From the NCBI GenBank assembly GCA_046538485.1, contig JBKHIT010000021.1, positions 1 through 64,000 of the forward strand: DNA of 64,000 nt, in the 5' to 3' direction. The notes beneath the pieces are model-generated. The model did no database searches and had not been told where the DNA came from. It saw nothing but the letters and a program-made list of their open reading frames with translations. Below, one piece after another: positions 2,177 to 57,659 of this stretch. The position numbers and the translations under genes are program-made. The stretch comes from Candidatus Brocadiia bacterium (lineage in GTDB: Bacteria; Planctomycetota; Brocadiia; SM23-32). The first letter of the stretch is position 1; every line of letters starts with the position of its first letter.

Positions 2177-3619
2177 TTACCTTGCGCGAATGCGTTCGTC
2201 TGAAAACGCAAAACTGAGGAAATCTTTCAGATGCAGTCCGAATCTGCGCCAGCTATCGGGAGATTCCCACAGCATGGTAAAATATCCCCACAGAACTTTC
2301 GGACGCATAAAATGGGATCGATAAAACAGCTGGAAAAGCGATTCCAGCTGATCTTCGGTCATTCCATCGGGGACAAATTGAAAATGCATGCAGTCCATCT
2401 TCTCATAATCTTCATCGAAAGTGCCATATTCTTCGATATTCTCGTAGACGGGTGATCCCGGGAACGGAGTGAACTTCGACAGATTGAAATCGTCAATCGG
2501 CAGGGAAAAAACATACTCCATGCTGCGGCGGACGGTTTCTTCGGTTTCGCCGGGCAGGCCGATCATAAGCAGCGCTTTAACGCGGATCCCCGCACGTTTG
2601 ATCTGACGGATGCGCCTGGCCAGCCGATCCACATCTGCGTTCTGACGGTGCCGAGAAAGAAGTTCTTGAGCGCCCGTCTCCACACCAAGACTGATCATCC
2701 AGCAGCCTGAAGCTTTCATCAATTTCAGAAGATCCGGATCAACGTGCTCGGCTCGCACAGCGCAGTTGTAAGTCATGCCGAGAGGTTTGTCTATCATCTT
2801 ACGGCAAAATTCCTCCACGCGTCTACGCACGAGAGTAAATTGATCGTCGTAGAAATTGATATGCCGAATTCCCCAGCGCGATTTCATATATTTCAAGTGT
2901 TCGTACAGATAGTCCGCGGAATTGTAACGAAAACTCCTTCGAAAAACCGACCGGTCACAATATGAACATTGGTACGGACACCCCCGGCTGGAGACGCAGC
3001 TGCTGTTCGGAGTGGTTGGATAATTGAATATCGGCAGCTGGTAAAGCTCTGGAAAGCCGTCCAGCTTTTCATAGGCCGGGAAAGGCAGTGAGTCCAGCTC
3101 CAGCAATTCCGACCTGTATCCGTTGAAAACAACCTCCCCGTCCTGTCGATGGGCCAGACCTTCGATCCCCGTGGGATCGCCACGGTTCTCCGTGAGTTCG
3201 CGCAGCGTTTCTTCCCCTTCCCCCACGACGGCGTAATCCACGGGAGGATTCTCTTCGAGGATTTTCGTCTTCAGCGCCGATACGTGCGGACCGCCCACGA
3301 CCGTCTGCGTCTGCGGCCGTTCAGATTTAATCATTTCCAGCAGACGAACGGTATCGGGGAAACTGGAGGTCGTGCAGGAAACGCCGGCATAATCCGGTTT
3401 TTCGCGGCGGACATATTCCCTGATTTTTCGGTCGCAATTCTCGGGATGGGCAAAACAGTCGATCAATTCGGTTTCGACGCCGTGTTCCTCAAGATAGGCC
3501 GCGATACCTGCCAATCCAAGCGGCGGCATCAGGTTCGCCACGCGGGCGATATCTCCCCTGGCATTGGACGGATCGTAACCAAGAGGATGGATCAGGAGGA
3601 CTTTTCGGGAACTTTGCAC
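2177..3619 (-). CDS. Cobalamin-binding (class B) radical SAM enzyme
   Basis: N-terminal PPLGLAGIAAYL and GGPH B12-binding motifs; SRGCPYQCSYC CxxxCxxC motif; GVET, GLPGET. Confidence 0.92.
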   Translation of the reverse strand: MQSSRKVLLIHPLGYDPSNARGDIARVANLMPPLGLAGIAAYLEEHGVETELIDCFAHPENCDRKIREYVRREKPDYAGVSCTTSSFPDTVRLLEMIKSERPQTQTVVGGPHVSALKTKILEENPPVDYAVVGEGEETLRELTENRGDPTGIEGLAHRQDGEVVFNGYRSELLELDSLPFPAYEKLDGFPELYQLPIFNYPTTPNSSCVSSRGCPYQCSYCDRSVFRRSFRYNSADYLYEHLKYMKSRWGIRHINFYDDQFTLVRRRVEEFCRKMIDKPLGMTYNCAVRAEHVDPDLLKLMKASGCWMISLGVETGAQELLSRHRQNADVDRLARRIRQIKRAGIRVKALLMIGLPGETEETVRRSMEYVFSLPIDDFNLSKFTPFPGSPVYENIEEYGTFDEDYEKMDCMHFQFVPDGMTEDQLESLFQLFYRSHFMRPKVLWGYFTMLWESPDSWRRFGLHLKDFLSFAFSDERIRAR

Positions 3620-3748: not shown

Positions 3749-4972
3749 TCACATCATTTCACAGACCAGTGCCGCGTTTATCCCGCCGAAAGCAAAACTA
3801 TTCTTAATAACCCGTCTGATCTCGTTTTCACGCAATCCCATAACGTGATCAATTCCCTCGCAATCGGGATCCACATTATCCAGGTTTCGGGTGGGAAGAA
3901 TCTTCCCTTCTTTTGCCATTTCCAGCGCAGCGATAAGTTCGACAGGTCCTGAAGCCCCCAGGGAGTGTCCCTGGTAGCCTTTCAGACTGCTCACGGGCGC
4001 GGTCGTTCCGAAGATCTCGCGGATTGCCCCTGCTTCTGCGGTATCGCCCTGCCGGGTCCCCGTGGCATGGGCATTGACGTAATCAATGGCATCCGGCTTG
4101 ATATCGGCCTGCTCAAGCGCTTCGCCCATGCAAAGTACCATAGATTCGCGATCAGATTGGCTCACGTGGACGCCGCTCCCGCACGTGTGATATCCGAGGA
4201 GCTCGGCTATAATTTTCGCTCCCCGTTCCACAGCATGGTCGTAATCTTCCAGCAGAACCACACCTGCCCCTTCTCCGCAGACAAGCCCGTCGCGGTCGCG
4301 GTCGAAAGGCCGGGGGCTCATTGTCGGATGGTCGTTGTATTCGGTGGATGTGGCATACAGCACGTCGAAAGAACCCGTTACCGTCTCGTGCAATTCTTCC
4401 GCCCCCCCGCAAAGCATGATGTCCTGTCGTCCCTGCCGGATCAAATCCATTCCGGTTCCAATCGCCTGGAGTCCGGAAGCGCACGCGGCAGAGGTAGCCA
4501 TCACGACCCCGCGGATACCGAAGTATTCGGCCACGTTCATTGTAACGGTATGAGAAAGGGTGCGAAAAAATTCCGAAGCGCCCAGCAGGGCAAAGTTTTC
4601 CTCGGCGGCCAGTAATCTGTAGGTCTCCATTATCGTGATGGGGCTGCCTGTAGTGTGGCCCATTATACAACCGAGTTGAGGATTGCCGCTCACATCTTCC
4701 CGGTCGAGTCCGGCGCTTTCGACGGCCTGTTCAGCGGCCTGGGCACCATAGATACTCATAGGACTCATAGTCCGACGCGAACGCCGGGGAATATCGCGTT
4801 CATTCTGCATTTCCAGCGGAGCACCCAACATGCTTCTGAGACCGTCGTAGTGTTCCCACTCGTCAATACGCTGAATCGCGCTACGGTTCGCGTACAATCC
4901 CTCCATCATTTCTTTCACCCCGTATCCGAGGGGCGTTACAACTCCGCAACCTGTGATAACGACACGCTTCAT
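3749..4972 (-). CDS. Beta-ketoacyl-ACP synthase (FabB/FabF family)
   Basis: Cys-His-His triad contexts SAACASG, YVNAHATGT and KGYQGHSLGASG; C-terminal NSFAFGG. Confidence 0.92.
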   Translation of the reverse strand: MKRVVITGCGVVTPLGYGVKEMMEGLYANRSAIQRIDEWEHYDGLRSMLGAPLEMQNERDIPRRSRRTMSPMSIYGAQAAEQAVESAGLDREDVSGNPQLGCIMGHTTGSPITIMETYRLLAAEENFALLGASEFFRTLSHTVTMNVAEYFGIRGVVMATSAACASGLQAIGTGMDLIRQGRQDIMLCGGAEELHETVTGSFDVLYATSTEYNDHPTMSPRPFDRDRDGLVCGEGAGVVLLEDYDHAVERGAKIIAELLGYHTCGSGVHVSQSDRESMVLCMGEALEQADIKPDAIDYVNAHATGTRQGDTAEAGAIREIFGTTAPVSSLKGYQGHSLGASGPVELIAALEMAKEGKILPTRNLDNVDPDCEGIDHVMGLRENEIRRVIKNSFAFGGINAALVCEMM

Positions 4973-6498
4973 CGGGGTAATCGACCTTCAATAAACTTCT
5001 GGAAACGGGGTTTGCCAATCACCGAGCGACAGACAAAAAATGCCGAAGCCATTGCCCCCACAACGCCCGGAAGCAATGAACTCTGGCCGGCAGCATATAG
5101 ATTGAGCAGAGGCAATTTACCCAACAGGTTGAACTGACCTACTTTTTGCTTGATACCGTAGGCGGCCCCGAATGGGCTGTTGAGATAATCGCGGTAAGTG
5201 AGCATGGATGCTGTCGCCATGAGTTCCAATTCATTGCGAAACTCGGGGAAATAGGGTTCCAAACGCCGGCATATTGCTTCAGCTCGACTGCGTTTATAGG
5301 CCGCGTATTTTTCTCCCCTTTGCCCGGTCCGTGTTTCCTTCCAGGGCTCCACATCCTCAAAAAAACTCACCTCCAAAGCCATCATCGTCTTGACCATCTG
5401 ACCGTCAACCTTTTCGCGACCGAACATCATAACCATAGGCCTCGCGCCCTCGCATTCGGGACTCAACATACGATTAAAATCGGTATCCGGATAAATCGAA
5501 AAGATAGGGGTATCGTTGGGCTCGTCAGGCGGCTCTTCGGCCAGTTTTCCAAAGACCGAAAAAAAACCGACGGACGGTTCAAAATCACGCACCCGGTGAC
5601 GGAAGGCGGGGGTCGTATGATGGTCGGGAAGCATCTTCAAAATCTTAAGAGGATGGATTGTGAAAACGCAGGCATCTGCTGATAATTCGGACCCGTCCGA
5701 AAGTATAAAATGCTCCACTTTTCGGTCTTTGATACCATCGACTGATTCCAGGGCACAATCGCACCGCACTTCCACATTCACCCCATCCAGCGCCTTCAGA
5801 AACGCTTCCACGATAGCATCACCTCCGCCCTCAATACGGGCGGAGGACTCCAGCAATCCAGCGGTAACACGGCAATGATCCGAAAAGGCCATTTCGGCCG
5901 GAGGAGTCCCGTGGCACGTGCAAAAAGCGGCAAGAATTGCCTGGAGAACCGGATTTTCAATATGCTCATCAAGCACATCCTGTAATGTAATATAATCTTC
6001 GTCCAGTGTCGGTGGGCGCTGACTGAGTCCCCTGACATTCATGGACGTTGTTCGCTCGCAGACTTTTATGAAGAGCTCGAAATAGTCGTCCAACCCGGCT
6101 TTTTCATCGGGAAAAAATCGCTTCAGGTTCTCACGGCTTCTTTCAATACCGCTGGGGAGTGTGTATGTTTCGTCGGTCGAGGGAAAAACCATCCGATGGC
6201 AATTCTGCTCAGGCAAAAAAACCGGATTAATCGACTCCTGCAACCCGAGCACGGCGAGCATATCGGCGAGCATTCCGTAATCGTTCTGGCTTAACCCCCC
6301 GGTAAAATGGAGTCCGACGTCAAAAGGTATATTTTCGCGGCGGAACCGGGCCAGAGAACCACCAGGATTGGGAGCCTTCTCCAGCACAAGCACACGATTT
6401 CCCTTCAGACCCAGCAATAGGGCTGTGGTCAAGCCGCTCGCTCCGCTCCCGACGACAATTTGATCGTAATGTTCCATACCGGGTGCCAAATGCCTCAC
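4969..6498 (-). CDS. Phytoene desaturase-like FAD-dependent oxidoreductase
   Basis: VVGSGASG Rossmann motif, LEK..PGG, FDVGLH, GAAYG, NLYAAGQ; overlaps both neighbours by 4 nt. Confidence 0.85.
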   Translation of the reverse strand: MRHLAPGMEHYDQIVVGSGASGLTTALLLGLKGNRVLVLEKAPNPGGSLARFRRENIPFDVGLHFTGGLSQNDYGMLADMLAVLGLQESINPVFLPEQNCHRMVFPSTDETYTLPSGIERSRENLKRFFPDEKAGLDDYFELFIKVCERTTSMNVRGLSQRPPTLDEDYITLQDVLDEHIENPVLQAILAAFCTCHGTPPAEMAFSDHCRVTAGLLESSARIEGGGDAIVEAFLKALDGVNVEVRCDCALESVDGIKDRKVEHFILSDGSELSADACVFTIHPLKILKMLPDHHTTPAFRHRVRDFEPSVGFFSVFGKLAEEPPDEPNDTPIFSIYPDTDFNRMLSPECEGARPMVMMFGREKVDGQMVKTMMALEVSFFEDVEPWKETRTGQRGEKYAAYKRSRAEAICRRLEPYFPEFRNELELMATASMLTYRDYLNSPFGAAYGIKQKVGQFNLLGKLPLLNLYAAGQSSLLPGVVGAMASAFFVCRSVIGKPRFQKFIEGRLPR

Positions 6499-11981: not shown

Positions 11982-12575
11982 ATGGCCCCCAAAAAACATA
12001 CGGAGAAACTCGAAAAGCCCGACAACTTGTTCGTACTCTCCGGGCCGAGCGGAGTGGGGAAAAATACCGTCGCCGAACGGCTTTGCAAGCGAGATCAGGT
12101 GACTCGAGCCATCACAGCAACGACCCGGGATCCCCGAAACGGGGAAAAAGAAGGCGAAGATTACTATTTTGTCGATGAAAAAAAGTTTCAACAATGGATC
12201 GAAGATGGCAAGTTGCTCGAACATAATCGCTACGACGACAATGACTACGGCACGCCCGCATTTTCGGTCAATGAAGCCGCAAAACACAAAAAACCCGTCA
12301 TCCTGGTCATCGACGTCAATGGCGCGTTGAAAATACGGGAACAATACCCCGAAGTCACCCTCATTTTCCTCGCTCCACCCGATGAACGAGAGCTGGAAAG
12401 AAGGCTCCGGGACCGTGGCGACGAAGACGAAAAGCAGCTCGAATATCGGCTCGATAGAGCCCGAGAAGAAATGAAACTGATGGATAAATATGACCGGGTC
12501 GTGACCAATGATTCGCTCGAGCGAGCCGTGAAAGAAGTGGCTAAGATCGTGGAAAATCAATCCGACTCTTCATAA
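11982..12575 (+). CDS. gmk: Guanylate kinase
   Basis: SGPSGVGK P-loop, TTRDPR..E..G.DYYF, YGT. Confidence 0.95.
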   Translation: MAPKKHTEKLEKPDNLFVLSGPSGVGKNTVAERLCKRDQVTRAITATTRDPRNGEKEGEDYYFVDEKKFQQWIEDGKLLEHNRYDDNDYGTPAFSVNEAAKHKKPVILVIDVNGALKIREQYPEVTLIFLAPPDERELERRLRDRGDEDEKQLEYRLDRAREEMKLMDKYDRVVTNDSLERAVKEVAKIVENQSDSS

Positions 12576-12677
12576 ATGGCAACTCGGTCACATTCCGGGA
12601 AATGACTGATTTCAAGATTTTCAGAAAGTATTTGCCAATATTTTGCAAAATAGATAGAAACAACGGGAGCACAATTC

Positions 12678-12950
12678 ATGGAAAAAAGTCGCGATCAAAG
12701 AGTTGAAGAACTGAGCGAAAAAAGTGGCGGCCGGTTCAAACTAACTGCCCTTGTTCAAAAGAGAGTTCGAAACTACTACCTCCACGGTCGGACATTTATG
12801 CCAAATGTCGAGAATATGGACGAACTTGTCGATCTCGTTCTCGACCAGGTCGAGCGCGGAGAAATTGAACTCAGTTTCCGCAAAAAGAGCAAAAAACCCA
12901 TCGACCAACTCCGGGAAGGCGGTCAGGAAAAAGAAGAAGAAGAACAATAA
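12678..12950 (+). CDS. rpoZ: RNA polymerase omega subunit
   Basis: GGRFKLTALVQKR motif; directly follows gmk. Confidence 0.85.
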   Translation: MEKSRDQRVEELSEKSGGRFKLTALVQKRVRNYYLHGRTFMPNVENMDELVDLVLDQVERGEIELSFRKKSKKPIDQLREGGQEKEEEEQ

Positions 12951-13090
12951 CCCGGAAACAAATTTTCCCGATCGAATCGACTGACGGGCTTGAAGGGCTC
13001 TCCGGGACAGCACTCCGTGCGCTTCATTGGCGTTTTATGCATTCCCACCCTTTCCATATCGACGCCGATACTACGTCACTGGCCCCCCGC

Positions 13091-13137
13091 TTGACACAGT
13101 GCGCCGAAACGGTTACACTTTTTCCAGTTTCGTAACA
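13091..13137 (+). promoter_or_regulatory. Sigma70-like promoter with an overlapping GTTAC-N15-GTAAC dyad (candidate operator)
   Basis: TTGACA (13091-96)-17 nt-TACACT (13114-19); GTTAC at 13112-16 and GTAAC at 13132-36. Confidence 0.6.
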
Positions 13138-13242
13138 TGTTTTTTTTTTGTCGTTGTCGTGCCACGGTTTTGTAAAAGGTGCTATTAATTCTGCGGCTTG
13201 CCACTCCAGAATGAATAGACCCTCCCAGAAAGGAGCGCTCTT

Positions 13243-14016
13243 ATGCCTGATTCCGGTCCCACCGGTAATAAAAATAAAGCCTTTTCGGCTTTTACCCTCA
13301 TCGAACTGCTGGTGGTGATAGCCATTATCGCCATCCTTGCTGCCATGCTCATGCCCGCTCTGGCCAGCGCCCGCTCGGCGGCCAAAGGCATCAGCTGCAC
13401 GTCCAAACTCAAACAAATCGGCACCGCCGCTACCATGTACCTCCACGACTACGGCGCGTGGCCCATCTACCGCGATACGGGCGACACGAGCACCTGGACG
13501 ATCTACTGGTGCGCCGCGACCAAAGACGGAGAGACTCCCGATTGCAGCCGCGGAGTGCTGTCCGAGTACCTTGACGTCAGGGAAATGCAGAGCTGTCCCG
13601 CATGGAAGCAGGAAGTCAGTTCCCAAAAACCGGGTCTCGGTTACGGATACAACTGGCTCACCCTTGGTTTCCCACCGAGCTGGTACGGTATGTTCACCTA
13701 CTACGCAGACGTCGCAAAAGACGGAGACGTAGAGAAACCAAGCCGAACAATCGCTTTCGCCGATGGTGGGATACGGGAATCGGCGACTTTCGGCGGTACC
13801 GACCCGAATGTCATCACGGAAACGGTTGCTCTCACTCCCCCCTCGCAGGATAGCGCCAACGCCCCGAGCATGCATTTCCGGCATCTGGGGAAAGCCAACA
13901 TTACTTTCTGCGACGGCCATGTCAGTGCAGTCCGTCCCCATCCGGGCACAGAAGACTCCTATCACCCCACGCTCGCGTACCCGTGCCCTGACGATCGTCT
14001 CTACGACAGGGAGTAA
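13243..14016 (+). CDS. Prepilin-type N-terminal cleavage/methylation protein with C-terminal H-X9-DG motif (DUF1559-like)
   Basis: [47 protein letters not shown]. Confidence 0.92.
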
Positions 14017-14018
14017 TT

Positions 14019-14738
14019 ATGGACCTGAGTCTATCATTGTGGACCGGGGGAATGTTGTTCACTCTCGGAATATTTGCCACGAAAGTCGGTCTCGGTCTTG
14101 GATTCGGAGGTGTGCGGTGGCGCGGCACGCTCCTCACCCACACCGTCTACATCGCCCTGTTTCTCATCGCCGCTCTGCTATCGAAACCTCTTACGGCGGC
14201 GCTTCGGCCCATCCTGCAGGCCGGCCCCTACCTCCACGCGATGGTCGCCCTGATCATGATTGGCTGGGGAATCCACCTGTTCCGGGGACAGCACCGCATC
14301 CGGGATAATTCGGCGTCCTCGCATTCATTGCTGCTCTTGATCCCCTGCCCCGTTTGTTTCAGCGCGGTGGTGTTATCCACCTGGACCGCCCTGGAGATCA
14401 CCGGTCTGCCGCCGCTGGCCGTCGGAGTTGGCCTCGGACTCGCATTTGTGCTCCTCTCCTCCGTGTTGCATCTTTCGGTCAAACTGAGAGGAAACTTTGA
14501 AAGAACACGTTCGTCCTCGGTCGCGTTGGCACTGACAATGATGGCCATCGGCGCTTATTTCCTCGCTTCCCTCATCCTCCCCGCCAAAATAGAGCAGGCT
14601 CGCAGCGCCTACAGAACATTCACCGCAAATAATGCCAGAATCAGCTCCTCCGGGGGAACGGGCGTTGTTTTCCTCCTCTTTGCTGTTCTTCTGGCAGGAT
14701 ATCTCACACGCAAGAAGTCGGAGCCCACGCATGAGTGA
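14019..14738 (+). CDS. DUF2162 family membrane protein (HmuT-like)
   Basis: Multi-TM protein with IFATKVGLG and PCPVC motifs; context with ExbB-like, DUF2149 and CobN genes. Confidence 0.8.
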   Translation: MDLSLSLWTGGMLFTLGIFATKVGLGLGFGGVRWRGTLLTHTVYIALFLIAALLSKPLTAALRPILQAGPYLHAMVALIMIGWGIHLFRGQHRIRDNSASSHSLLLLIPCPVCFSAVVLSTWTALEITGLPPLAVGVGLGLAFVLLSSVLHLSVKLRGNFERTRSSSVALALTMMAIGAYFLASLILPAKIEQARSAYRTFTANNARISSSGGTGVVFLLFAVLLAGYLTRKKSEPTHE

Positions 14739-15309
14739 ACTGCTCGCCGGATTGGAAACCTACCTGTACGTCATTTCATCAAGTCTTTTCTACCCCGTCG
14801 TCATCGGGCTTGTGGCGCTGACTTTCTGGATTGTCTTCTGTTTTGGATCGTTCCTGCGGAATTACTCTGAGAAACGACGTGGCGAATCATCAGCTTTAAA
14901 ACAGTACCGAAAAGACCTTGAGGACGAACTGCAGCGCCATCGCGAAGAGGGCGCCGAACATTTGGATGCCCGTCTCGAACGGCTTCTGCAGGAATCGGAA
15001 TTAAAACTGGTCAAACAGCTCGACCGCGTCCGATTCGCCGTCCGCGCGGGGCCCGCTGTGGGGTTGATGGGCACGCTCATTCCGATGGGGGTTGCGCTCT
15101 CTTCCATGGCCCAGGGCAATATGCCCAAAATGGCCCAGAGCATGGTCACCGCCTTCACCACCACCGTCGTCGGACTCGCCTGCGGGGTCGCCGCATATCT
15201 GATGTCACTCGTACAGGAAAAATGGGTCCGCGAAGACATGCGCGAGATGGAATACGAAACCGAAGTGGCTGTGCGTGAAGTTGCCGAAGAATCGGGAGGG
15301 TACGAATGA
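14731..15309 (+). CDS. MotA/TolQ/ExbB proton channel family protein (HmuU-like)
   Basis: GPAVGLMGTLIPMG and AFTTTVVGL; ATG at 14731 overlaps the upstream gene. Confidence 0.9.
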   Translation: MSELLAGLETYLYVISSSLFYPVVIGLVALTFWIVFCFGSFLRNYSEKRRGESSALKQYRKDLEDELQRHREEGAEHLDARLERLLQESELKLVKQLDRVRFAVRAGPAVGLMGTLIPMGVALSSMAQGNMPKMAQSMVTAFTTTVVGLACGVAAYLMSLVQEKWVREDMREMEYETEVAVREVAEESGGYE

Positions 15310-15650
15310 AGTTCCTGAAACGTCGGCGGCAATCGGAAGGTTACATGCAACCCCTTGAAGACCCCCTGAGCGGCGTCGCTAACCTTTTTGATGCCAGCAT
15401 CGTGTTCATCGTCAGCATGATGATCGCCCTGTTTATGGCCTACAACATGCTCGACCTGCTCGATCCTGAGTCGGAAGTAACAATCGCCAAAAAAACCGCC
15501 GACGGGAAGCTGGAAATTATCACCAAAAAAGGCAAAGAGATCAAAGCACGGAAAGTGACGGACCGAAAACTCAGCGGACAGGGGACCCGTCTTGGAACGG
15601 CCTACAAACTCAAAGATGGAAGAGTTATCTATGTGCCCGATCAAGAATAA
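15306..15650 (+). CDS. DUF2149 family protein (ExbD/HmuV-like)
   Basis: EDPLSGVANLFD + TM segment; G.G.RLGTAYKL.DG..IYVP. Confidence 0.88.
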   Translation: MKFLKRRRQSEGYMQPLEDPLSGVANLFDASIVFIVSMMIALFMAYNMLDLLDPESEVTIAKKTADGKLEIITKKGKEIKARKVTDRKLSGQGTRLGTAYKLKDGRVIYVPDQE

Positions 15651-18600
15651 GTTGCTGGCCGCCCTGATCATCCTGCTGTGCTCCGCAACGAACGTCCTCA
15701 GCGCGGAGAAACCGGTCGTCAGCCTCGTCACAAGCGATGCCGACTCACGGTCCGCTGTGCAGGCTGTCCGGGCGATCCGGGAAGACTATCCTGGATTAAA
15801 AAAGCACCTCACACTGAGACCTTACTCCTCGGGCAACCTTACCCGCGCCGATCTGAATGCGATAGCAGGATCGCGCATCGTGTTTGTGTTCATGTTCGAC
15901 CGCCAGACGGCCAATCGGATGCAGCCGTTCCTCGAGCGCGTCATTGAGCGAGGTGGGGACGTTTACACCGTCAACTATCTGTTTCCGGGACAGCACAAAG
16001 AGCTCGGTTTTACGGTCGATGAAAAGGTCTGCGCCTACTACGAAGCGCGGGGTTCGGAAAATCTGAAAAACGGGCTGCTTTTCGCCCTCAAAAGAGATTT
16101 GGATCTGGAAGTCTCATTCGAAGATCCCGCCCCCTACCCAGACGCCGGGCTGTACGAACATCATTCCAGTCGGATTATCGAAGACGTAGAGGAATTCAAA
16201 CGCGTCTACGGTGAAGAACGAGAAAATTTCAAAGCCGACGCTCCGTGGGTCGGGATCATCTTCTACGTCAGCGACCTCGCCGGCGGTCAGATGGACGTCA
16301 TCGACACGGTGATCGAAACACTCGAAGACGCAGGATTGAATGTCTTGCCGGCCTACGGATATCCGTCCGAGGGGGTGGTCGAAAAATACTTCCTCGATGA
16401 AAAAGGCCAGAGCCGTATCCGCGTTCTCGTCGCCATTGCCCTCAAACTCGGCGTAAACCCCGAAAAATCCGCCCGGGTTCTCGGCGCGCTCGACGTTCCC
16501 GTCATCGACCCCATAATCCTTTACACACAGTCCGCAGACCAGTGGCGCGAGTCGGAGATCGGGCTTGATATCAACGAACGCACCTGGCAGATCGCCAAGC
16601 CCGAACTGGCCGGTATTGCCCAGCCCACTGTCATCGGGGCAAAAGAAACCGCCAGAGATCCCGCGACAGGCATAGTTTACATGCGCAAAAAACCCATGCC
16701 AGAGCGCGTCCGTCGCGTCGTCAACCGGGTGCAAGCCTGGCTAAACCTCCAGAACAAACCCAATCCCGACAAGCACGTTGCCGTCCTCTACTACAACTAC
16801 CCGCCGGGCAAGCAGACAATCGGCGCGTCCTACCTTAACGTGCTGCCGGAAAGCCTCTGGGAGATACTTCAGAAACTGAAGAACGAGGGATATGACGCGC
16901 GCGGGGCCCCGGGTGACAAATCGGCTCTGCAGACGGCCGTTTTTCACCACCGGAATCTCGGCAACTGGGCTCCCGCGGAACTGGACGCCTTCGTGCGGCA
17001 GTATGATCCGCCCCGTGTAAGCATAAAACAATACGAAAAATGGCTGGGAAAACTCCCGCCCGCGTTCATTCAATCCGTCGAAAAAGCATGGGGACCGCCC
17101 GGGGAGAGCGACATTATGGTCTGGCGCGATCAAACCGGGCAGGCCTGGATTATCATCCCCGCCCTTCAATACGGAAACATCCTTCTGACGGCTCAGCCCC
17201 CACGCGGATGGGGCCAGAACGTCACAAAATTATACCACGACACAACAATCCCGCCCCACCACCAGTACGTCGCCTTCTACCTCTATCTGAAACACAAATT
17301 CGGCGCCGATGCCATTATCCACGTCGGCACCCATGGCACCCACGAATGGCTATCCGGAAAAGAAGCCGGCCTGGCCGCCGAAGATCCGCCGGAAGCCCTG
17401 ATTCAGGATATGCCCAACATTTATCCCTACATCGTCGATGATGTCGGAGAAGGCATACAGGCGAAACGACGCGGTCAGGCTGTGGTAATCGACCACATGA
17501 CGCCGCCGCTCGACGATTCCGGATTGAACCCGGAACTCGACCAGCTCTCAAATCTTATCGACAAGTACAACGTCGCCACCCAAAAAAGCGCTCCTCTGGC
17601 GAAGGCGCGCCTCGACGAGATCAACCGGCTGGCAGGCGAAAAAGGGTTGCTGACGGATCTGGGACTGAAAAACATCGAAACGGACGAAGATGTCGAGCAG
17701 CTGGAACATCATTTGAAACGAATCGCCGAAAAAACCACCCCATTCGGTCTCCATACCTTCGGAAAGGTGCCAGAGGAAAAATACAGGCGCTCCACCGCCG
17801 AGGCTATCCTCAAGGCCGGAGACAAACTGCCGCCGGCGCGGAGAAAGGCAAAGCTGAAAGAGCTGGACGAACGAATAATCGCCGGTGCGCAGCGCGAATT
17901 GGATAGCCTGGTTCAAGCGCTGTCGGGGCGCTACGTCCCGGCCGGCACAGGCAACGATCCGATTCGCAACCCCGATTCGCTTCCGACGGGCAAAAATTTC
18001 TACTCTTTCGATCCCTCGCGCATACCTTCACCCGACACCTACAAGATGGGAGCGCAGCTGGCCCGGGAACTGGTCGAAGATTACAGGAACCGTCACGGTC
18101 AGTATCCCGATAAGCTCAGTTTCACGCTCTGGGCCGTGGAAACCATCCGCCACGAAGGAATCGTTGAGTCGCAGATCATGCACCTGCTTGGCGTCCGGCC
18201 CACCTGGGACAAACGGGGTAAGGTCACGGGAGTCGAGGTGATCCCCTCCGATGATCTGCACCACCCGCGCATCGACACCATTATGGTCCCTTCCGGCCTG
18301 TACCGGGATGTATTCTCCAATCTTATGGCTTTGCTCGACAAAAGTGTGAGCCTGGCGCGAGATCAGGATGAGTCCGATAACATCCTCCGCGCGAATGTGC
18401 TCGCCCGGCGAGACGAACTTCTTAAGCGCGGCATCTCCAAAGAAAAAGCTCTGCGTCTGGCTTCCGTCCGCATATTCACCGAAGAACCCGGTTCTTATGG
18501 CACCGGCCTGTGCGACGTGATTCCCCTGTCGGGGACGTGGGACAACGAAGAGGAGGTCGCGGACGTTTACTTTTTGAGAATGAGTCACATGTTCGGACAG

Positions 18601-19596
18601 GGATTCTGGGGGAACCGGACGGCGTCGGGTTCGGGACCGGGCGTTGAAAAAAAGATCAGCAAAGAGCTCTTCAAAAAAGCTCTTTCCGGGACCAAAATGT
18701 CCGTTCACAGCCTTTCCAGCAACGTCTACGCCACTCTGGACAACGACGATTTCTTTCAGTATCTCGGGGGAACCGCGATGGCGGTCCGTGCGGTGGACGG
18801 TGAGACGCCCGAGATGTATGTATCGGACATGTCGAATCCCAACGCCGCCCGGCAGGTAACTCTCGCCCGCGTGATGGGGACCGAGATGCGAACGCGCTAC
18901 CTCAACCCGAAATGGATCGACAAAATGATGGCTGAGGGCTACGCCGGCGCGCGCTTCGTCGATAAAGTCGTCGAACATCTCTGGGGATGGCAGGTGACCG
19001 CGCCGGAGGTTGTTGATTCCGCAAAGTGGCAGGAAATGTATGAGACATATGTGGAAGACAAATACGATCTGAATTTGAAACAGAAATTCAAAGAAGCCGG
19101 GAATACCTGGGCGCATCAATCAATCGTTGCGCGGATGCTCGAGGTCGTGCGGAAAAATTACTGGGATCCGGACCGGGAAGTCGTTCAGCGGCTGGCGAAA
19201 GAATACGCCGAAAGTGTCAAAAAAGAGGGCCTGGCCTGTTGTGACCACACCTGCAATAACCCTGCGCTTACGGAATACACCCGGTCCACGCTCACGTCGG
19301 TGCCCGGCCTTGAAAACCTGGCCAAAGAAATGGCCGACTCGCTTGAAGAGATAAAACGAACCCGGGCGAGCAGCCGTCCGAAAGCAAGTAACCCCGGAAA
19401 CAAGACCGCCGATGCGTCAAGCCCGTCTCCGGAACCCGCTGAGGGGCAACCGCAGCAGGTCGAAGGTTATGAAATGGAAGAAACGACTTCGGGAAGCAGC
19501 GCCTCCGCTCCTATCCCGTATCTTTTCCTGGTTTTTTTCCTGGGCTTTCTGGGTGTCATATTCTGGGGCTGGAAACGAAACCAAAAAGCCGGCTGA
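15631..19596 (+). CDS. CobN/magnesium chelatase H-like protein with signal peptide and C-terminal membrane anchor (HmuS-like)
   Basis: HVGTHGTHEW, GNDPIRNPDSLPTGKNFY, SGLYRD, RYLNPKWI, WGW, CCDHTCNNP; N-terminal signal; C-terminal TM (IPYLFLVFFLGFLGVIFWGWKR). Confidence 0.9.
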   Translation: MCPIKNKLLAALIILLCSATNVLSAEKPVVSLVTSDADSRSAVQAVRAIREDYPGLKKHLTLRPYSSGNLTRADLNAIAGSRIVFVFMFDRQTANRMQPFLERVIERGGDVYTVNYLFPGQHKELGFTVDEKVCAYYEARGSENLKNGLLFALKRDLDLEVSFEDPAPYPDAGLYEHHSSRIIEDVEEFKRVYGEERENFKADAPWVGIIFYVSDLAGGQMDVIDTVIETLEDAGLNVLPAYGYPSEGVVEKYFLDEKGQSRIRVLVAIALKLGVNPEKSARVLGALDVPVIDPIILYTQSADQWRESEIGLDINERTWQIAKPELAGIAQPTVIGAKETARDPATGIVYMRKKPMPERVRRVVNRVQAWLNLQNKPNPDKHVAVLYYNYPPGKQTIGASYLNVLPESLWEILQKLKNEGYDARGAPGDKSALQTAVFHHRNLGNWAPAELDAFVRQYDPPRVSIKQYEKWLGKLPPAFIQSVEKAWGPPGESDIMVWRDQTGQAWIIIPALQYGNILLTAQPPRGWGQNVTKLYHDTTIPPHHQYVAFYLYLKHKFGADAIIHVGTHGTHEWLSGKEAGLAAEDPPEALIQDMPNIYPYIVDDVGEGIQAKRRGQAVVIDHMTPPLDDSGLNPELDQLSNLIDKYNVATQKSAPLAKARLDEINRLAGEKGLLTDLGLKNIETDEDVEQLEHHLKRIAEKTTPFGLHTFGKVPEEKYRRSTAEAILKAGDKLPPARRKAKLKELDERIIAGAQRELDSLVQALSGRYVPAGTGNDPIRNPDSLPTGKNFYSFDPSRIPSPDTYKMGAQLARELVEDYRNRHGQYPDKLSFTLWAVETIRHEGIVESQIMHLLGVRPTWDKRGKVTGVEVIPSDDLHHPRIDTIMVPSGLYRDVFSNLMALLDKSVSLARDQDESDNILRANVLARRDELLKRGISKEKALRLASVRIFTEEPGSYGTGLCDVIPLSGTWDNEEEVADVYFLRMSHMFGQGFWGNRTASGSGPGVEKKISKELFKKALSGTKMSVHSLSSNVYATLDNDDFFQYLGGTAMAVRAVDGETPEMYVSDMSNPNAARQVTLARVMGTEMRTRYLNPKWIDKMMAEGYAGARFVDKVVEHLWGWQVTAPEVVDSAKWQEMYETYVEDKYDLNLKQKFKEAGNTWAHQSIVARMLEVVRKNYWDPDREVVQRLAKEYAESVKKEGLACCDHTCNNPALTEYTRSTLTSVPGLENLAKEMADSLEEIKRTRASSRPKASNPGNKTADASSPSPEPAEGQPQQVEGYEMEETTSGSSASAPIPYLFLVFFLGFLGVIFWGWKRNQKAG

Positions 19597-19597
19597 T

Positions 19598-22500
19598 TCA
19601 GAAATCCAACTGCCGCCGCGGCGGAACGGGTGGTAGATCCGGGTATTTCCATTCTGCCACTTCAATCCGGTGTTCGCCATCTGTTACGCCAAAAGCAAAG
19701 GCAAATTGTGGTGTTTCGGTCCCCTTGCTGATGCTCGGGTCATCGGCCCAGCCGGCGTAATAGCGCACGCCATCCATGTGATACATCGGCCGCGTTATGT
19801 CCCGTGGCCATGTCGTGACAATGCTCCGCGTACGACCCGTCACCTTGCCCCTGATACTGTCCGACGTAAATGTAAGGTCGAACGGACCAAGCCCGCGCAC
19901 TCCGACGTTCCCAACCGTCAATTTCGCATACGTCGGATCAGGAACGACAAACCGTTTGTATTCCGGGGTGACGATAACCCGCGCTCGCCGCGCGTAAAAT
20001 TGCTTGTCTCCGGTCTTCACTTTGACGGGATGATCGGACTCGATCCAAAGATGTTGCGCATTTCCGCGTTTCAAGCGCTTCAGCCCCGGGACCACTTCGT
20101 CGGCGTCCTCAGGCACGCCTTTCCACTTCAGAGTGCAATCCGGCAGACGGTGAGTTTCGACTTCCGGTTTGAGATCGTCAAGGGGAATGGTCTCTTCAAG
20201 CGGCGCGGTCCCTTCGAGAAAGTGACCTTTATAGCCAACGCGTCCCGCACCACCGGTCAGCGAAAGAGTAACGGAATCTCCGTGCAGCCGGACTGTGCCT
20301 GTCGAGCCTTCAAATGTCACTTCTGCGCCCTGGTAATTCATATGTCGAGAGGACAAGAAGGCATAATCAGTGCCTTCTCGATGCTTTATCCGCATCACAC
20401 CGGGCGCCAGCTGTTTGATCTCCGGCGGCGGTTCCTCCTGATCCCGGGGATAAAGCACCCAGAAATAGTCTTCTTTTGGCCTGTTCGCCAATCGCATGAA
20501 AAGCCGTTTTTCGTATCCGCGGTCATCGCCCGGTTTGACCGGCGTCCCGTCCTTATGCACCCAGTCACGCGAGATTCTTTTCTTTTTATCCAGCCGGGAT
20601 CCCAGATTTGTGCCGTGCAGGCCGAGACGTTGTCGTTCTTCATAATAATCCGGGGCAACTTTATCAGGTCCCGAGAAAACAACATCCATGGTGGTCGGCC
20701 ACTCGCTATCCAGGACAAATCGGCCGCCCTTTTGCGCGAGGTGTTCCCTGCCCCCGAGCAGACTTAGATAAAGATACGAAGCCAGTTGCCCGTCACCTTG
20801 AAAGCTGTCCCGCAGCACGAAATAGTTGGGACTCGTCGCCGTTTCGCCCTTCATGAACAGCACCTGCCGGTCCCATTCGATCGCCCCCTGTTTCTGCTCG
20901 TATTGTTCGGAGAGTTTCCGGTAATTATCAATGGGAATGTTTGCATCAGTGGGTTTCCGGAAAGGTTCGGCGATTCCCGGAGATATGAACCAATCGGGAA
21001 ACCCCGTGCTCGCCCATGCATACTCGACCGTCCCGCCAAAAGCATGATCGAGAATGTTACAGTCAGGCCAGCCGTAAGGCCACATATTTTCCGGATGCCC
21101 GAACCGAATCACATTGTGCATGTCGTAGGCGGGATGGGGACGACGCCTGTCCGCGCTCGACCAGTAGGCCCATTGCTGAAACGGAACCAGCACAGATCCG
21201 CGGCTGAGCAAGAAAAAATGGCCCGGATCGGCCGGCGTCCAGTGACTCCAGTTGAAACCGGCTCTCAGCAGCATATACGTCTCATTCGGTCCCTGGTGAG
21301 CGCGAAAAATAACTCCCATTCCCGGATATATGCGGCTCCGCAGCTCCAGGGGCTCTGGGTTCACATCCCGGGGCACAATCCACTTGTTTTTCGGTTGGTT
21401 GGCACCGTTTTCCTTCCATGCCCACACCAGATTGGCCGCAAAATCCGGGTTCTTTCGCGTGAAACTTCCCGCGGCCTCCAGAAGATGCGAGATGTTCCCC
21501 GGCCCCGAATTAGCCAATCCGGGCAACATCCGACATTTGTAGCGCGGGTCGGCGGGCGTAAGAAGGTTTATGACGTAATCCCAATCGGGCTTGTGGTATT
21601 TTTTATAGAGCAAATCAACGTTGGGAGCATCGGCCGAAATTAAACCCGGCAGACTGTTGGTGGTTCGGGCGTAACCGTGCATGTGGTAGGACGCTCCGTA
21701 TTCAAAATACGCCCCCGCCGGCGCGATTTGCGTGGCCATTTTGTATTCGGTATACGGCGCCACATGAGCCCGCCATTTTCCAAACATCGGATGATCGGCG
21801 ACCAGAGGCAGAAAAGCATTCACGCCCATGTAGCGGGACGTGCCCATATTCGGGTTGCCCGTGTGGGCCCCGTTCCCGTAACTGATGAAATCGGGTTCCT
21901 CAAAAAGATACATGATCAACGCCAACCGGGCTCGCATTTCCTTTCGGACATCTTCGGGCAGATTTCCGCGCGCAAGCGTGGCGTCCGCTTTCGCCGCGGC
22001 TACATACGTGCCTGTGGTGAGATGATGACTGATCACAGGACAGGTGATCGGAGCGTTGCAGAGTCCGATGAGATATTTTCCGGGTCCTTTCGGCGCTTCA
22101 TGGTGGAGCTCTGAGCCGCGCTCCCGGTAAAGCCGCGGATATTTCAGGTCCTTGTCAGGCCACTCGAGGACGTAATCTTTATATCGATCGAGACCGATCA
22201 CCCCGTAGAACGAACGTATCTGCGCAAAGGGCCCGAGAGTCTTGAGCGACTCCGGTTTGGTAAAATAACTGAAACGCACGCGGCTTTGCTGGGGATCCTG
22301 AACCTTCGGGCGGCCCAGCGCCAGCCCCCACACCCGCCGCCCATACGTTCGGGAAAGGCCGGGGTCATGGTCAATTATCGAAAACGGTGAGGTTTCCGAA
22401 GCGCTATCTTTCGGCCAGGTGGCATGCCGGGCGCTCATGGGAAACAGGATCCGAACGTCGTGTGGCCCGTCCGATTTAATCGGCACGCAATTCATCTTCC

Positions 22501-23479
22501 GCCAGTTTCCCTTGCGCAGCGGAACTACTCCCACCATCGCACAGCTATCGGGCGATTTTTGGCGTTCAGCGTTGTTGAAAAGGCCCAGCTGGGAGAGACT
22601 GGGTGGGCAAGTATCGGGCGTGATACGGGGATTTCTCATCTTTGCCAGACCAGCAAGGGGTTTGACCTTGCCCTTGTCGATCCCGGAACCATTGCCGTGG
22701 GTCCGGGCAACTTCCATTCGGTCCGGTGACCAACCTTCTGCCAGTCGCAGTTCCCAGAAATCAGATCCGTCCAGAGATCCAAGGTCATACTCTTCGACCA
22801 CCTTGACCACCGGCACCCGATGGACCACCCGGATCTGCGCCCGGTAATACCCGCCCCCGTGCCATTCCAGTTCGTAAACAATTTCAGCGTAAACGGGCCC
22901 GCTGGAGGTGAGTTCCACCCGCATAGCCCTGACATTTCGTTCTGTCAAAATTTTGCTGCTGCCGAGCGGTTTGCTTTTGCCGCTTCGGAAACTGAGAATC
23001 GGAGCCTGAAGTTTCCGAGCCGGCACGGCCGGATCAAATGTCATCTTCCTTTCCGACGGCAAACGAAGGGAGAGAAGATCATTCGACATTACAATGGCTT
23101 TTTTGTCGGCATTAACACGAACCCCCGCGTCCGTTTTTCGGCCGCCGCTGTCCCTAATTTCGTAGGTGGCCTCGGCATTCGGAGCCACCTCGGCCACAAA
23201 ACTGAGAATTTTACCCTCTCCATCTTCCGGATTTGAGAACTGCAACGGAATGAGTTTGCCTGTGCTGTCAAACAAGCTCAGGTTCTTCCCAGCCAATCCC
23301 TCGCCCGTGAGCCTGTATCTCACGAGGTCGGGTGCGAAACCACGCCCGGTATAATCATGAATTTTCAAGGTCTTTTCAGCAGCCCCGACCCAGCCTGTGC
23401 ATATCAGCCCGCAAAAAACAAACGTCAATATTACGAAAACTCTCAATCGTTGACAGCTACTCATTCTCTGGTTTCTCAC
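19598..23479 (-). CDS. Large secreted hypothetical protein (1293 aa), possibly containing a heparinase II/III-like lyase module
   Basis: Long ORF with GAGGAG SD and signal peptide; the segment IFRAH..ETYMLLRAG..SHW..DPGHF resembles heparinase-II/III-like domains (tentative). Confidence 0.7.
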   Translation of the reverse strand: MRNQRMSSCQRLRVFVILTFVFCGLICTGWVGAAEKTLKIHDYTGRGFAPDLVRYRLTGEGLAGKNLSLFDSTGKLIPLQFSNPEDGEGKILSFVAEVAPNAEATYEIRDSGGRKTDAGVRVNADKKAIVMSNDLLSLRLPSERKMTFDPAVPARKLQAPILSFRSGKSKPLGSSKILTERNVRAMRVELTSSGPVYAEIVYELEWHGGGYYRAQIRVVHRVPVVKVVEEYDLGSLDGSDFWELRLAEGWSPDRMEVARTHGNGSGIDKGKVKPLAGLAKMRNPRITPDTCPPSLSQLGLFNNAERQKSPDSCAMVGVVPLRKGNWRKMNCVPIKSDGPHDVRILFPMSARHATWPKDSASETSPFSIIDHDPGLSRTYGRRVWGLALGRPKVQDPQQSRVRFSYFTKPESLKTLGPFAQIRSFYGVIGLDRYKDYVLEWPDKDLKYPRLYRERGSELHHEAPKGPGKYLIGLCNAPITCPVISHHLTTGTYVAAAKADATLARGNLPEDVRKEMRARLALIMYLFEEPDFISYGNGAHTGNPNMGTSRYMGVNAFLPLVADHPMFGKWRAHVAPYTEYKMATQIAPAGAYFEYGASYHMHGYARTTNSLPGLISADAPNVDLLYKKYHKPDWDYVINLLTPADPRYKCRMLPGLANSGPGNISHLLEAAGSFTRKNPDFAANLVWAWKENGANQPKNKWIVPRDVNPEPLELRSRIYPGMGVIFRAHQGPNETYMLLRAGFNWSHWTPADPGHFFLLSRGSVLVPFQQWAYWSSADRRRPHPAYDMHNVIRFGHPENMWPYGWPDCNILDHAFGGTVEYAWASTGFPDWFISPGIAEPFRKPTDANIPIDNYRKLSEQYEQKQGAIEWDRQVLFMKGETATSPNYFVLRDSFQGDGQLASYLYLSLLGGREHLAQKGGRFVLDSEWPTTMDVVFSGPDKVAPDYYEERQRLGLHGTNLGSRLDKKKRISRDWVHKDGTPVKPGDDRGYEKRLFMRLANRPKEDYFWVLYPRDQEEPPPEIKQLAPGVMRIKHREGTDYAFLSSRHMNYQGAEVTFEGSTGTVRLHGDSVTLSLTGGAGRVGYKGHFLEGTAPLEETIPLDDLKPEVETHRLPDCTLKWKGVPEDADEVVPGLKRLKRGNAQHLWIESDHPVKVKTGDKQFYARRARVIVTPEYKRFVVPDPTYAKLTVGNVGVRGLGPFDLTFTSDSIRGKVTGRTRSIVTTWPRDITRPMYHMDGVRYYAGWADDPSISKGTETPQFAFAFGVTDGEHRIEVAEWKYPDLPPVPPRRQLDF

Positions 23480-23539: not shown

Positions 23540-23752
23540 TCATTTGTTTTCAAGGAGCTTCTCCACACATTTTAACACCCGTTCAAAATCCAAAATCGAC
23601 AACTTCCGGGCCGCCGGTTCTTCACAGCCACCTTTCGTCCCGAGATTGAATTCCAGCAGACTGGTATACTTGCTGATAGTGTGGGAGACCTTCAGGCGGA
23701 AATGGGCGCGGCAAACGCCGGCCTTAAAATTGGAGACAGGAACATTGAAGAA
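23540..23752 (-). pseudogene. Start-less 70-codon open frame (FFNVPVSNF...VEKLLENK*), probable C-terminal remnant of a deleted gene
   Basis: Manual translation. It begins where the upstream prepilin loses its expected motif and ends 60 nt before the next gene. Confidence 0.4.
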
Positions 23753-24498
23753 CCGACCTCGTAGTGATCGTCGTGTCGGTTCCGGTAGAGATATGAAGCC
23801 GGGTTGAAAAGCGCGCCTCCATAGCTATATCGATCCGAGGCGGCGGGTTGCATCATAATCGTTCTGGAAGCGCGCCGCACATCAGCGATCCGGTACCAGT
23901 AACGGCACCTGTACGAATTGCCCTTGTTGACATGGTGGTGGTAAGTCCATGACATATAATAGTTTGGCATATAATTTGAGATCGCGCCAGAGCCGTAATA
24001 GTCCGGATCGCCGGACGGATTATGCCACTGCCAGGCCTGATAATCGTACCATCTGGGGACGGCGTGGCTGGTTTTGGAAAGTTTCACTGATGGGCACTTC
24101 CAGACTCCGACCGGCCGATAAGTACCCGGCCGTCCCCCACCTCGAAAATGGTCGTAGCCGAGTTCCGGGTACCAATCCGGACGATAGACGTTTGGCGCAT
24201 AACCTTCCCAGGCGAGGAGAGTGTAGTATTTGCTTTTATGAATGGTCAGATATTCTATCGGGCTGCCAGGATTAGTACGGGTCAACTGCGGCAGACCGCC
24301 GTAATTCTCGGCGTAGAACTGGCACCCCAATGCGAGTTGCCGCACATTATTCTTGCAGCTGGCATCCCGAGCGGCTTCACGGGCGCTTTCCAGTGCCGGC
24401 ATCAACATCGCCGCAAGAATCGCGATAATCGCAATGACCACCAGAAGCTCTATAAGCGTAAAAGCTTTTCTCAATTCTTGTCTCCGGATCAATGACAA
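23692..24498 (-). CDS. Prepilin-type (DUF1559-like) protein, apparently truncated just before the DG motif
   Basis: [42 protein letters not shown] is followed by non-family sequence instead of F.DGH. Confidence 0.8.
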
Positions 24499-41812: not shown

Positions 41813-41878
41813 CCTGACGCCCCCGCCCCTAACCCTTTGAGCATGACGAATCTTGCGATCTCTAAGGAGAACAACTCA

Positions 41879-57630: not shown

Positions 57631-57659
57631 ATCGACCTCCGGAATATTATCAAAACCTC

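Follow-up and report, generated by a model that had tools for sequence, protein, structure and literature searches.

The DNA analysed here comprises 64,000 nt of contig JBKHIT010000021.1 (positions 1 to 64,000, forward strand) from a Candidatus Brocadiia bacterium (GenBank assembly GCA_046538485.1); this whole stretch is referred to as the window. At ~13.2-19.6 kb it carries five genes on the plus strand, in which a prepilin gene stands directly ahead of a putative periplasmic chelatase module. Families were assigned by Pfam and NCBIfam profile searches, while overlaps and gaps were read directly from the sequence. The first gene (13243-14016, +) encodes a DUF1559/H-X9-DG prepilin-type protein of 257 aa, matching N_methyl (PF07963, E 3.8e-7), DUF1559 (PF07596, 2e-8), the H-X9-DG model TIGR04294 (4.3e-5) and TIGR02532. 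It is followed by a polytopic DUF2162 membrane protein ('predicted transporter'; 14019-14738, +; PF09930, E 1.5e-53), an HmuU-like proton-channel protein of the MotA/TolQ/ExbB family (14731-15309, +; PF01618 MotA_ExbB, E 4.4e-13), whose open reading frame (ORF) opens at 14632 and whose start is the ATG at 14731, and an HmuV-like DUF2149 protein (15306-15650, +; PF09919, E 2.7e-33). The last gene (15592-19596, +) encodes a CobN-like protein of the BtuS type (PF02514 CobN-Mg_chel, 1060 bits). Counted from the TTG at 15592 this protein has 1334 aa, the likely start being the ATG at 15616 or at 15631. By inspection of the translation, its N-terminus is hydrophobic and ends in VLSA and its C-terminal segment is hydrophobic as well, which suggests an exported, membrane-anchored protein.

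All five frames are open and the genes are tightly coupled. Between the pilin and DUF2162 genes there is a gap of only 2 nt (TAA at 14014-16, ATG at 14019). The DUF2162 and ExbB-like genes overlap by 8 nt (ATGAGTGA), the ExbB-like and DUF2149 genes by 4 nt (ATGA), and the DUF2149 and CobN-like genes by 20 nt if the latter starts at the ATG at 15631. Five abutting or overlapping genes of these families had been proposed in a preliminary description made from the letters alone, and the profile calls and the reading of the junctions bear this out. The junction of pilin and DUF2162 is spanned, with six differences, by one contig (13359-14643) in run X2 of a second study. An assembly artefact is thereby excluded, and the gene order is genuine. 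Many contigs from other runs break or branch at 13290-13340 of the window, with loose ends and a spike in depth. Such breaks fit a near-identical N-terminal pilin motif that recurs in about 125 paralogues.

No outer-membrane receptor was detected: in the whole genome, which is 88.3% complete, there were no matches to Plug, to the TonB_dep_Rec barrel or to TonB_C, and a local receptor search with hidden Markov models gave no match. Likewise, no ChlI/ChlD-like ORF lies on the window's contig, and three weak AAA matches (E about 5e-6) are found on other contigs. The CobN-like gene is the only member of the CobN family in the genome. These searches confirm that the window holds neither CobST/ChlID ATPase genes nor a receptor gene, and support the earlier view of an Hmu-like periplasmic CobN-type module lacking both AAA+ partners and a receptor. 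For pilus machinery, two Peptidase_A24 (prepilin peptidase), three secretin and ten T2SSE matches were above the Pfam cut-off. The window itself contains, at 55918-58775 (-), two adjacent genes for T2SSE-family ATPases (570 and 371 aa) adjoining a Colicin_V-family membrane protein, and these possibly belong to machinery for a pilus or for secretion.

The CobN-like protein compared with HmuS, CobN and ChlH

By sequence, the CobN-like protein is assigned to the CobN/ChlH/HmuS chelatase superfamily (PF02514). Among proteins in the PDB it matched HmuS (9d26, E 3e-143), CobN (3e-131) and ChlH (7e-130). According to PMC12583661, the HmuS family is defined by a methionine-rich insertion, by Met-79 and by His-254, whereas His-538 and His-1209 make up the HmuS metal site. 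In the same account the insertion spans 120 residues of domain IV (780-898), Met-79 and His-254 are heme ligands at the interface of head and neck, and His-1209, together with Asp-1208 and Glu-1212, lies at the proposed de-chelation site (PMC12583661). The insertion has no counterpart in the window protein: its alignment to 9d26 stops at HmuS residue 690 (query 733) and resumes at HmuS residue 892 (query 723). His-254 is aligned to Leu-286 and Met-79 to Phe-102, which is preceded by a Met, both in stretches where the posterior confidence of the alignment is low. At the proposed de-chelation site Asp-1208 is matched by Asp, His-1209 by Asp and Glu-1212 by Gln, and the query motif DDFFQY at the position of His-1209 resembles that of CobN chain 7c6o. 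The query block VGTHGTHEW aligns with FGTHGSLEF of HmuS, so that the histidine equivalent to the superfamily-wide His-538 is kept. Because the insertion, His-254, Met-79 and His-1209 are missing, we place the protein, as judged from its alignment, outside the strict HmuS family of heme de-chelatases.

A BtuS type of CobN-like protein, encoded beside btuB, was set apart by Rodionov et al. 2003, as cited in PMC6460266. The window protein shares the features of this type, namely export and membrane anchoring as judged by inspection, the lack of an ATPase partner, and DUF2162, MotA/ExbB and DUF2149 proteins as partners, and its sequence accordingly classes it as a member of a BtuS-type module. The head of such a cluster, a cobalamin riboswitch with a btuB-type receptor, is missing at this locus, where Rfam gave no riboswitch in the window and Pfam no Plug domain or barrel in the genome.

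Relatives and origin of the four-gene core

Relatives with 38-65% identity were found in named genomes of Nitrospirae, Desulfobacterota-type lineages, Methylacidiphilum, Ignavibacteria and many Betaproteobacteria. Many of them stand in the order receptor-(TonB)-DUF2162-ExbB-DUF2149-CobN, and the core order of the window operon recurs in loci L014, L016, L017, L019, L020, L022 and others. Seventy of 199 candidate neighbour ORFs, 48 of them large, were put to Pfam. Of these large ones, 43 proved to be TonB-dependent receptors, spread over 38 distinct loci, and the rest comprised BtuF-CbiZ fusions, CbiZ-nitrilase fusions and a single ChlID-like protein. The smaller neighbours include CbiZ, CbiK, CbiJ, TonB and one NikR. 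A co-oriented cobalamin riboswitch lies 5' of the cluster in 11 of the 18 relatives tested; in four of the seven without one, the sequence ends just upstream. In its relatives, the BtuS core is linked to corrinoids. As to the fusions, a BtuF-like binding domain is joined to CbiZ (adenosylcobinamide amidohydrolase) inside the BtuS clusters L003 (5220-7283, -) and L031 (3383-5392, +), and the CbiZ-nitrilase fusions occur in L037 and L039.

The identities of the core proteins point outside the family of the window genome. DUF2162 shares 39-46% identity with its counterparts in B12-switched clusters (L016, L031, L026, L024 and others), the ExbB-like protein 57-65% with its relatives, and DUF2149 74-78% with relatives in other phyla. 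The CobN-like protein shares 51-55% identity with homologues from Nitrospiraceae, Desulfobacterota and Methylacidiphilum, as against 39% with its own family's copy at locus L003. The L003 cluster consists of two riboswitches, receptor, DUF2162, ExbB, DUF2149, BtuF-CbiZ and CobN. Since the core proteins are nearer to those of other phyla than to this same-family copy, the four-gene core was probably acquired horizontally. In the family DUF2149 is rare, with two of 31 genomes having it; of the 401 genomes sampled from the phylum, 37 do, and most phylum copies are laid out differently, as receptor-(DUF4430)-CobN-ExbB-DUF2149. In a family of the same class (f5; L004-L010, L086-L092) the arrangement receptor-DUF4430-CobN-ExbB-DUF2149, without DUF2162, was observed.

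A pilin clade linked to cobalamin riboswitches

The window genome holds 125 ORFs with a prepilin motif and has at least 71 matches to DUF1559. The best full-length BLAST matches of the window pilin are pilins linked to cobalamin riboswitches (31-39% identity over 233-262 aa), and among the 125 ORFs the only own paralogue that aligns with it over its full length is itself riboswitch-linked, on contig C78. In a quick maximum-likelihood search with IQ-TREE over 117 rows, the window pilin and 13 riboswitch-linked pilins formed a clade of 14 (SH-aLRT 96), apart from 102 own paralogues. Two motifs mark this clade: HFRH is present in 14/14 members as against 0/123 of the other own pilins, and Y[GA]YN in 14/14 as against 1/123. 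Because it groups only with riboswitch-linked pilins, the window pilin is, on this sequence evidence, a member of a cobalamin-riboswitch-linked DUF1559 clade and no random paralogue.

The only cobalamin riboswitch of the genome (G000:C78:1133-1320) lies 170 nt ahead of the pilin motif of the C78 paralogue. The locus (G000:C78:1133-5086, L114) consists of riboswitch, terminator-like hairpin, DUF1559 pilin, BtuF-like protein, ABC ATPase and FecCD permease, and contains no btuB; the pilin occupies the usual position of btuB. Across the family, cobalamin riboswitches are present in 27 of 31 genomes, and 20 regions were retrieved. A prepilin gene is the first ORF behind the riboswitch in 13 of the 31 genomes, usually followed by BtuF, BtuD and/or BtuC, with a measured distance of 140-213 nt from aptamer to pilin motif in 12 of these 13. 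Twelve other family genomes have, by coordinates, a Plug-domain receptor behind the riboswitch; two of these were checked directly, and one of the checked loci reads receptor-TonB-BtuF-BtuD-BtuC. The sister of the window pilin is encoded in L127 (G024:C198:1-6600), a pilin-led corrinoid salvage operon with tandem cobalamin riboswitches, pilin, BtuF, a CobC-like phosphatase, CobU, CobT and CobS. Eleven of the 13 family genomes of the pilin type have no Plug match at all.

The link extends beyond the family. A clade profile was matched at E<=1e-35 in 57 of 401 sampled phylum genomes, mostly once per genome, in a search that scored six candidates per genome only. Outside the family, a co-oriented cobalamin riboswitch lies 5' of the pilin in 20 of the 29 best clade loci, within 372 nt in 15 of them and at 790-1232 nt in five. 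The clade is also commoner where receptors are missing, which favours a role in their place: in the phylum sample excluding the window genome, Plug is absent in 40 of 56 clade carriers as against 61 of 344 non-carriers. An alignment scan of metagenomes retrieved mostly generic DUF1559 genes; three of 80 loci reached clade level (at least 165 bits), two of them with a riboswitch directly upstream. A scan with the single pilin protein found no relative in the metagenomes. The preliminary description had tied the pilin to tetrapyrrole uptake. A link of the pilin to corrinoid uptake is supported by its membership in a riboswitch-linked clade whose genes precede btuFCD or genes of cob salvage and occur mostly where Plug is lacking; the heme side of the proposal is not supported. 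Loci L145 and L149 belong to a different family of the phylum; behind their riboswitch-linked pilin come an ORF of roughly 120 aa and a Diphthami_syn_2 gene (PF01902), and ORFs of the same size were seen in L151, L156 and L159. In L143 a PEP-CTERM protein (2345-3037, -) is encoded between riboswitch and pilin. A convergent pilin gene lies 78 nt behind the L003 cluster; it was rejected as an orthologue of the window pilin, as it matches other paralogues and its best hits cover N-terminal stretches of 47-146 residues only.

A pilin proposed to take the place of a corrinoid receptor, and alternative explanations

The explanation that we favour, with a probability of about 60%, is that a horizontally acquired BtuS core has been joined to a resident pilin of the B12-linked clade, which takes the place of the receptor and serves a corrinoid-type ligand. 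A pilin of this clade occupies the receptor's slot twice in this genome, in the btuFCD operon and in the BtuS operon of the window. What follows on the ligand, on which way the chemistry runs, on assembly into a pilus and on energy coupling is inferred. The cell's type II/IV machinery would process the pilin and assemble it, and the pilin would capture a cobalt tetrapyrrole of the corrinoid type, or escort it over the outer envelope without TonB. In the periplasm, the membrane-anchored CobN-like protein would act on the bond between metal and tetrapyrrole. With neither a receptor nor TonB in evidence for it to drive, the ExbB-like/DUF2149 pair may energise the CobN-like protein or DUF2162 by the proton-motive force, and DUF2162 may carry the metal or the product over the inner membrane.

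Several observations weigh against this explanation. The adjacency is not conserved. A prepilin gene directly 5' of a BtuS cluster and co-oriented with it occurs in 0 of 90 other cluster loci (1.45 Mb), which contain three prepilin-motif ORFs in all, and a BtuS-type gene near a pilin in 0 of the 80 metagenome loci from the pilin-alignment scan. The preliminary description had itself named an adjacency unique to this genome as grounds for giving up its proposal, and taken literally this is what the gene-neighbourhood check returned. The window copy has no cobalamin riboswitch directly 5' of the pilin, unlike the C78 paralogue: no riboswitch or other RNA was matched by Rfam at gathering scores in the whole window, and at E<=10 over 12500-14100 two matches of chance level were all that appeared. 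B12 control of the window operon is therefore unsupported. The tree that places the pilin in its clade comes from the quick search only, and the depth of the phylum search was limited as stated above. A receptor or TonB gene could sit in the part missing from the 88.3%-complete genome. The contrast in Plug between clade carriers and non-carriers is a pattern rather than a test, as the genomes are related and it overstates their independence; moreover, 16 of the 56 carriers do have Plug-domain proteins, so that pilin and receptor are not strictly exclusive. The prepilin site of the window pilin (...FSA|FTLIE) carries Ala at -1 in place of the canonical Gly. Finally, the literature search found no DUF1559 protein shown to form a filament or to bind a ligand. 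Despite the unique adjacency, we regard the clade evidence as real comparative backing for the role of the pilin.

Ala at -1 is also present in 51 of the 125 own pilins. An AlphaFold2 model of the window pilin had a mean pLDDT of 68.7, and a Foldseek search of the PDB with this model gave no match at E<=0.001, the only hit being the N-terminal helix of gonococcal pilin (E 0.17). A complex prediction of the pilin head with the head/neck part of the CobN-like protein, run without controls, scored 0.00.

If the abundance of pilins is taken alone, the adjacency would be a habit of the lineage or chance, and the pilin may then serve a generic DUF1559 role: an operon-private pseudopilin that exports, anchors or displays a large exported protein, here the 1334-aa CobN-like protein, without capturing a ligand. 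A simple gene caller kept 111 of the own pilins and dropped 14, including that of the window; 55 of the 111 have a co-oriented gene within 100 nt, and 16 of these 55 partners (29%) encode at least 700 aa, as against 8.8% of genes genome-wide. Fourteen of 22 large pilin partners carry DUF4838, CBM9, GH123, PA14, LamG or similar domains, and eight are without a family. DUF1559 genes thus often precede large exported proteins of glycan type, which fits export or anchoring and speaks against ligand capture. Two further pairs of pilin and giant protein lie in the window: the pilin at 23692-24498 (-) precedes a 1293-aa protein without Pfam match (19598-23479, -), and the pilin at 40934-41812 (+) a 1254-aa CBM9/NHL protein (41837-45601, +). 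In spite of this, we consider the generic role unlikely. The window pilin groups with the riboswitch-linked clade and not with those paralogues, within that clade the pilins are partnered by genes for BtuF, ABC transporters and cob salvage rather than by giant exported enzymes, and the gene directly 3' of the window pilin encodes the membrane protein DUF2162, not an exported giant. Scavenging of free Ni, Co or Zn ions, with a merely historical link between pilin and B12, appears quite unlikely. It draws on a NikR gene directly 3' (4761-5177, +) of the closest CobN-like relative, L012 from a Nitrospiraceae metagenome-assembled genome whose upstream end is cut off, on a NikR homologue on another contig of the window genome (G000:C127:83327-83746, -; E 6e-44), and on the missing riboswitch of the window copy; nickel or another metal is a possible ligand on these grounds, to the detriment of a corrinoid. 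However, 11 of the 18 relatives are under cobalamin riboswitches, CbiZ or BtuF adjoin, the signature motifs of the clade are intact in the window pilin, and no NikR-type operator could be supported.

Uptake of heme by an Hmu-type system, in which the CobN-like protein would strip iron from heme, is improbable. HmuS is the best PDB match, the neighbours share their families with HmuU (MotA/ExbB) and HmuV (DUF2149) of Porphyromonas gingivalis, and the His-538 equivalent is kept; yet the features that define HmuS in PMC12583661 are missing (no insertion, Leu for His-254, Phe for Met-79, Asp for His-1209), the scores of CobN and ChlH come close to that of HmuS, there is neither HmuY nor HmuR, and the relatives are B12-switched, with CbiZ, BtuF and CbiK as neighbours. 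The heme function put forward in the preliminary description is accordingly not sustained, and a corrinoid is, from these sequence comparisons, more likely than heme as the ligand. Very improbable, in our estimate, is a decaying remnant, that is, a cluster that lost receptor, TonB, riboswitch and BtuF-CbiZ, no longer works, and had a pilin land beside it. In favour of decay, the locus has four elements fewer than L003, the genome lacks CbiZ and the cluster occurs in only two of 31 family genomes. Against it, none of the five frames is interrupted and the genes are translationally coupled, the histidine of the catalytic site persists along with the conserved blocks, contigs of the second study show the same arrangement with few differences, and the core does not derive from the L003 type (39% as against 51-55% identity).

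Comparison with known systems

The operon shares with hmuYRSTUV of Bacteroidota an exported, membrane-anchored protein of the CobN family that has no ChlI/ChlD partners and is encoded next to MotA/ExbB-family and DUF2149 proteins (PMC12583661, PMC11681262). As these sources describe the hmu system, the window operon differs in lacking a hemophore, a TonB-dependent receptor, the HmuS insertion, His-254 and His-1209, in its order (DUF2162-ExbB-DUF2149-CobN instead of S-T-U-V), and in having B12-switched relatives of its core where hmu is iron-regulated. In the P. gingivalis table of PMC11681262, HmuT is listed as 'hypothetical protein', HmuU as MotA/ExbB and HmuV as DUF2149. The BtuS clusters share the same four-gene core at 40-78% identity, their members having riboswitch, CbiZ, BtuF and CbiK; unlike them, the window copy lacks riboswitch, receptor, TonB and BtuF/CbiZ, and has a prepilin as its first gene. 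A cobN-exbB-exbD-tonB cluster has been described on plasmid pSZ77 of G. lovleyi, its function being given there as unknown (PMC3403914).

Turning to the pilin, the genes of cobalamin uptake of the E. coli type, BtuB-TonB together with BtuFCD, stand under a B12 riboswitch. The window genome and 12 relatives in its family likewise possess a riboswitch-controlled operon that usually carries btuF, btuD and/or btuC, but a DUF1559 pilin replaces btuB as its first gene; the window operon has a paralogue of this pilin and none of btuFCD. With the DUF1559/H-X9-DG family at large the window pilin shares the N-terminal methylation motif, the DUF1559 domain and the C-terminal H-X9-DG motif. It differs by belonging to a subclade with HFRH, Y[GA]YN and a B12-riboswitch link, while most paralogues adjoin glycan-type exported proteins. 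Competence pseudopili serve in DNA uptake. Like these, the dextran-binding, pili-like fibres at the crateriform structures of Planctomycetes (PMC5394234) are fibres of the envelope to which a substrate binds ahead of its internalisation, and the dextran-binding fibres are the nearest experimental precedent for the role suggested here. Neither is known to be linked to DUF1559 proteins, small cofactors or riboswitch control. Our literature search found nothing on the function of DUF1559, no description of a B12-linked pilin and no paper on the riboswitch-linked clade. A B12-clade pilin joined to a BtuS module is new here.

DUF1559 is among the largest protein families without known function in bacteria of the Planctomycete, Verrucomicrobia and Lentisphaera type, and how the receptor-poor members of these groups import B12 is not known. 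It is conceivable, and we suggest it tentatively, that a DUF1559 subfamily provides a TonB-independent route of corrinoid import that replaces BtuB in receptor-poor, PVC-type bacteria, and that a paralogue was recruited again at the window locus for a periplasmic CobN-like (de)chelatase linked to a proton motor. The window operon is a second, independent case in which a pilin of the clade stands where relatives have a TonB-dependent corrinoid receptor. The ExbB-like/DUF2149 pair is retained without a detectable receptor or TonB, which is an argument for a motor serving the chelatase-like protein or DUF2162. If so, what the ExbB-like/DUF2149 motor of the Hmu and BtuS systems drives would be a chelatase or its permease and not a receptor in the outer membrane. 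This departs from the current Hmu model, which in the legend of Figure 1 of PMC12583661 has the motor serve the receptor.

Upstream region and neighbouring genes

The preliminary description had assigned a single promoter to the operon. A sigma-70-like candidate, TTGACA-17-TACACT (13091..13119, +; 10/12 positions match), does exist, but promoter-like sites are no commoner here than in shuffled sequence (four found in 12500-20000, 3.3 expected), and for this reason it is weak support and no evidence by itself. An inverted repeat, GTTAC-N15-GTAAC (13112..13136), was read in the sequence overlapping the -10 hexamer, as a possible though unsupported operator. The pattern occurs seven times in the genome, with about 16 occurrences expected from base composition. 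As the repeat is not enriched and has no second copy near the NikR-like gene of the genome, a NikR-type operator at 13112-13136 was rejected. The 292-nt spacer ahead of the pilin is unique in the genome, and in a search for a leader shared among pilin genes no 8-mer stood out as enriched.

Upstream of this spacer, the operon is preceded by a yicC-like gene, a guanylate kinase gene and an ORF of 90 aa. On its 3' side it meets the convergent gene for the 1293-aa protein mentioned above. Further along the window, a gene for a sulfatase-domain protein with a Peripla_BP_3 stretch is located 5' of the pilin gene at 40934-41812, the unit extending over 39292-45601 (+).

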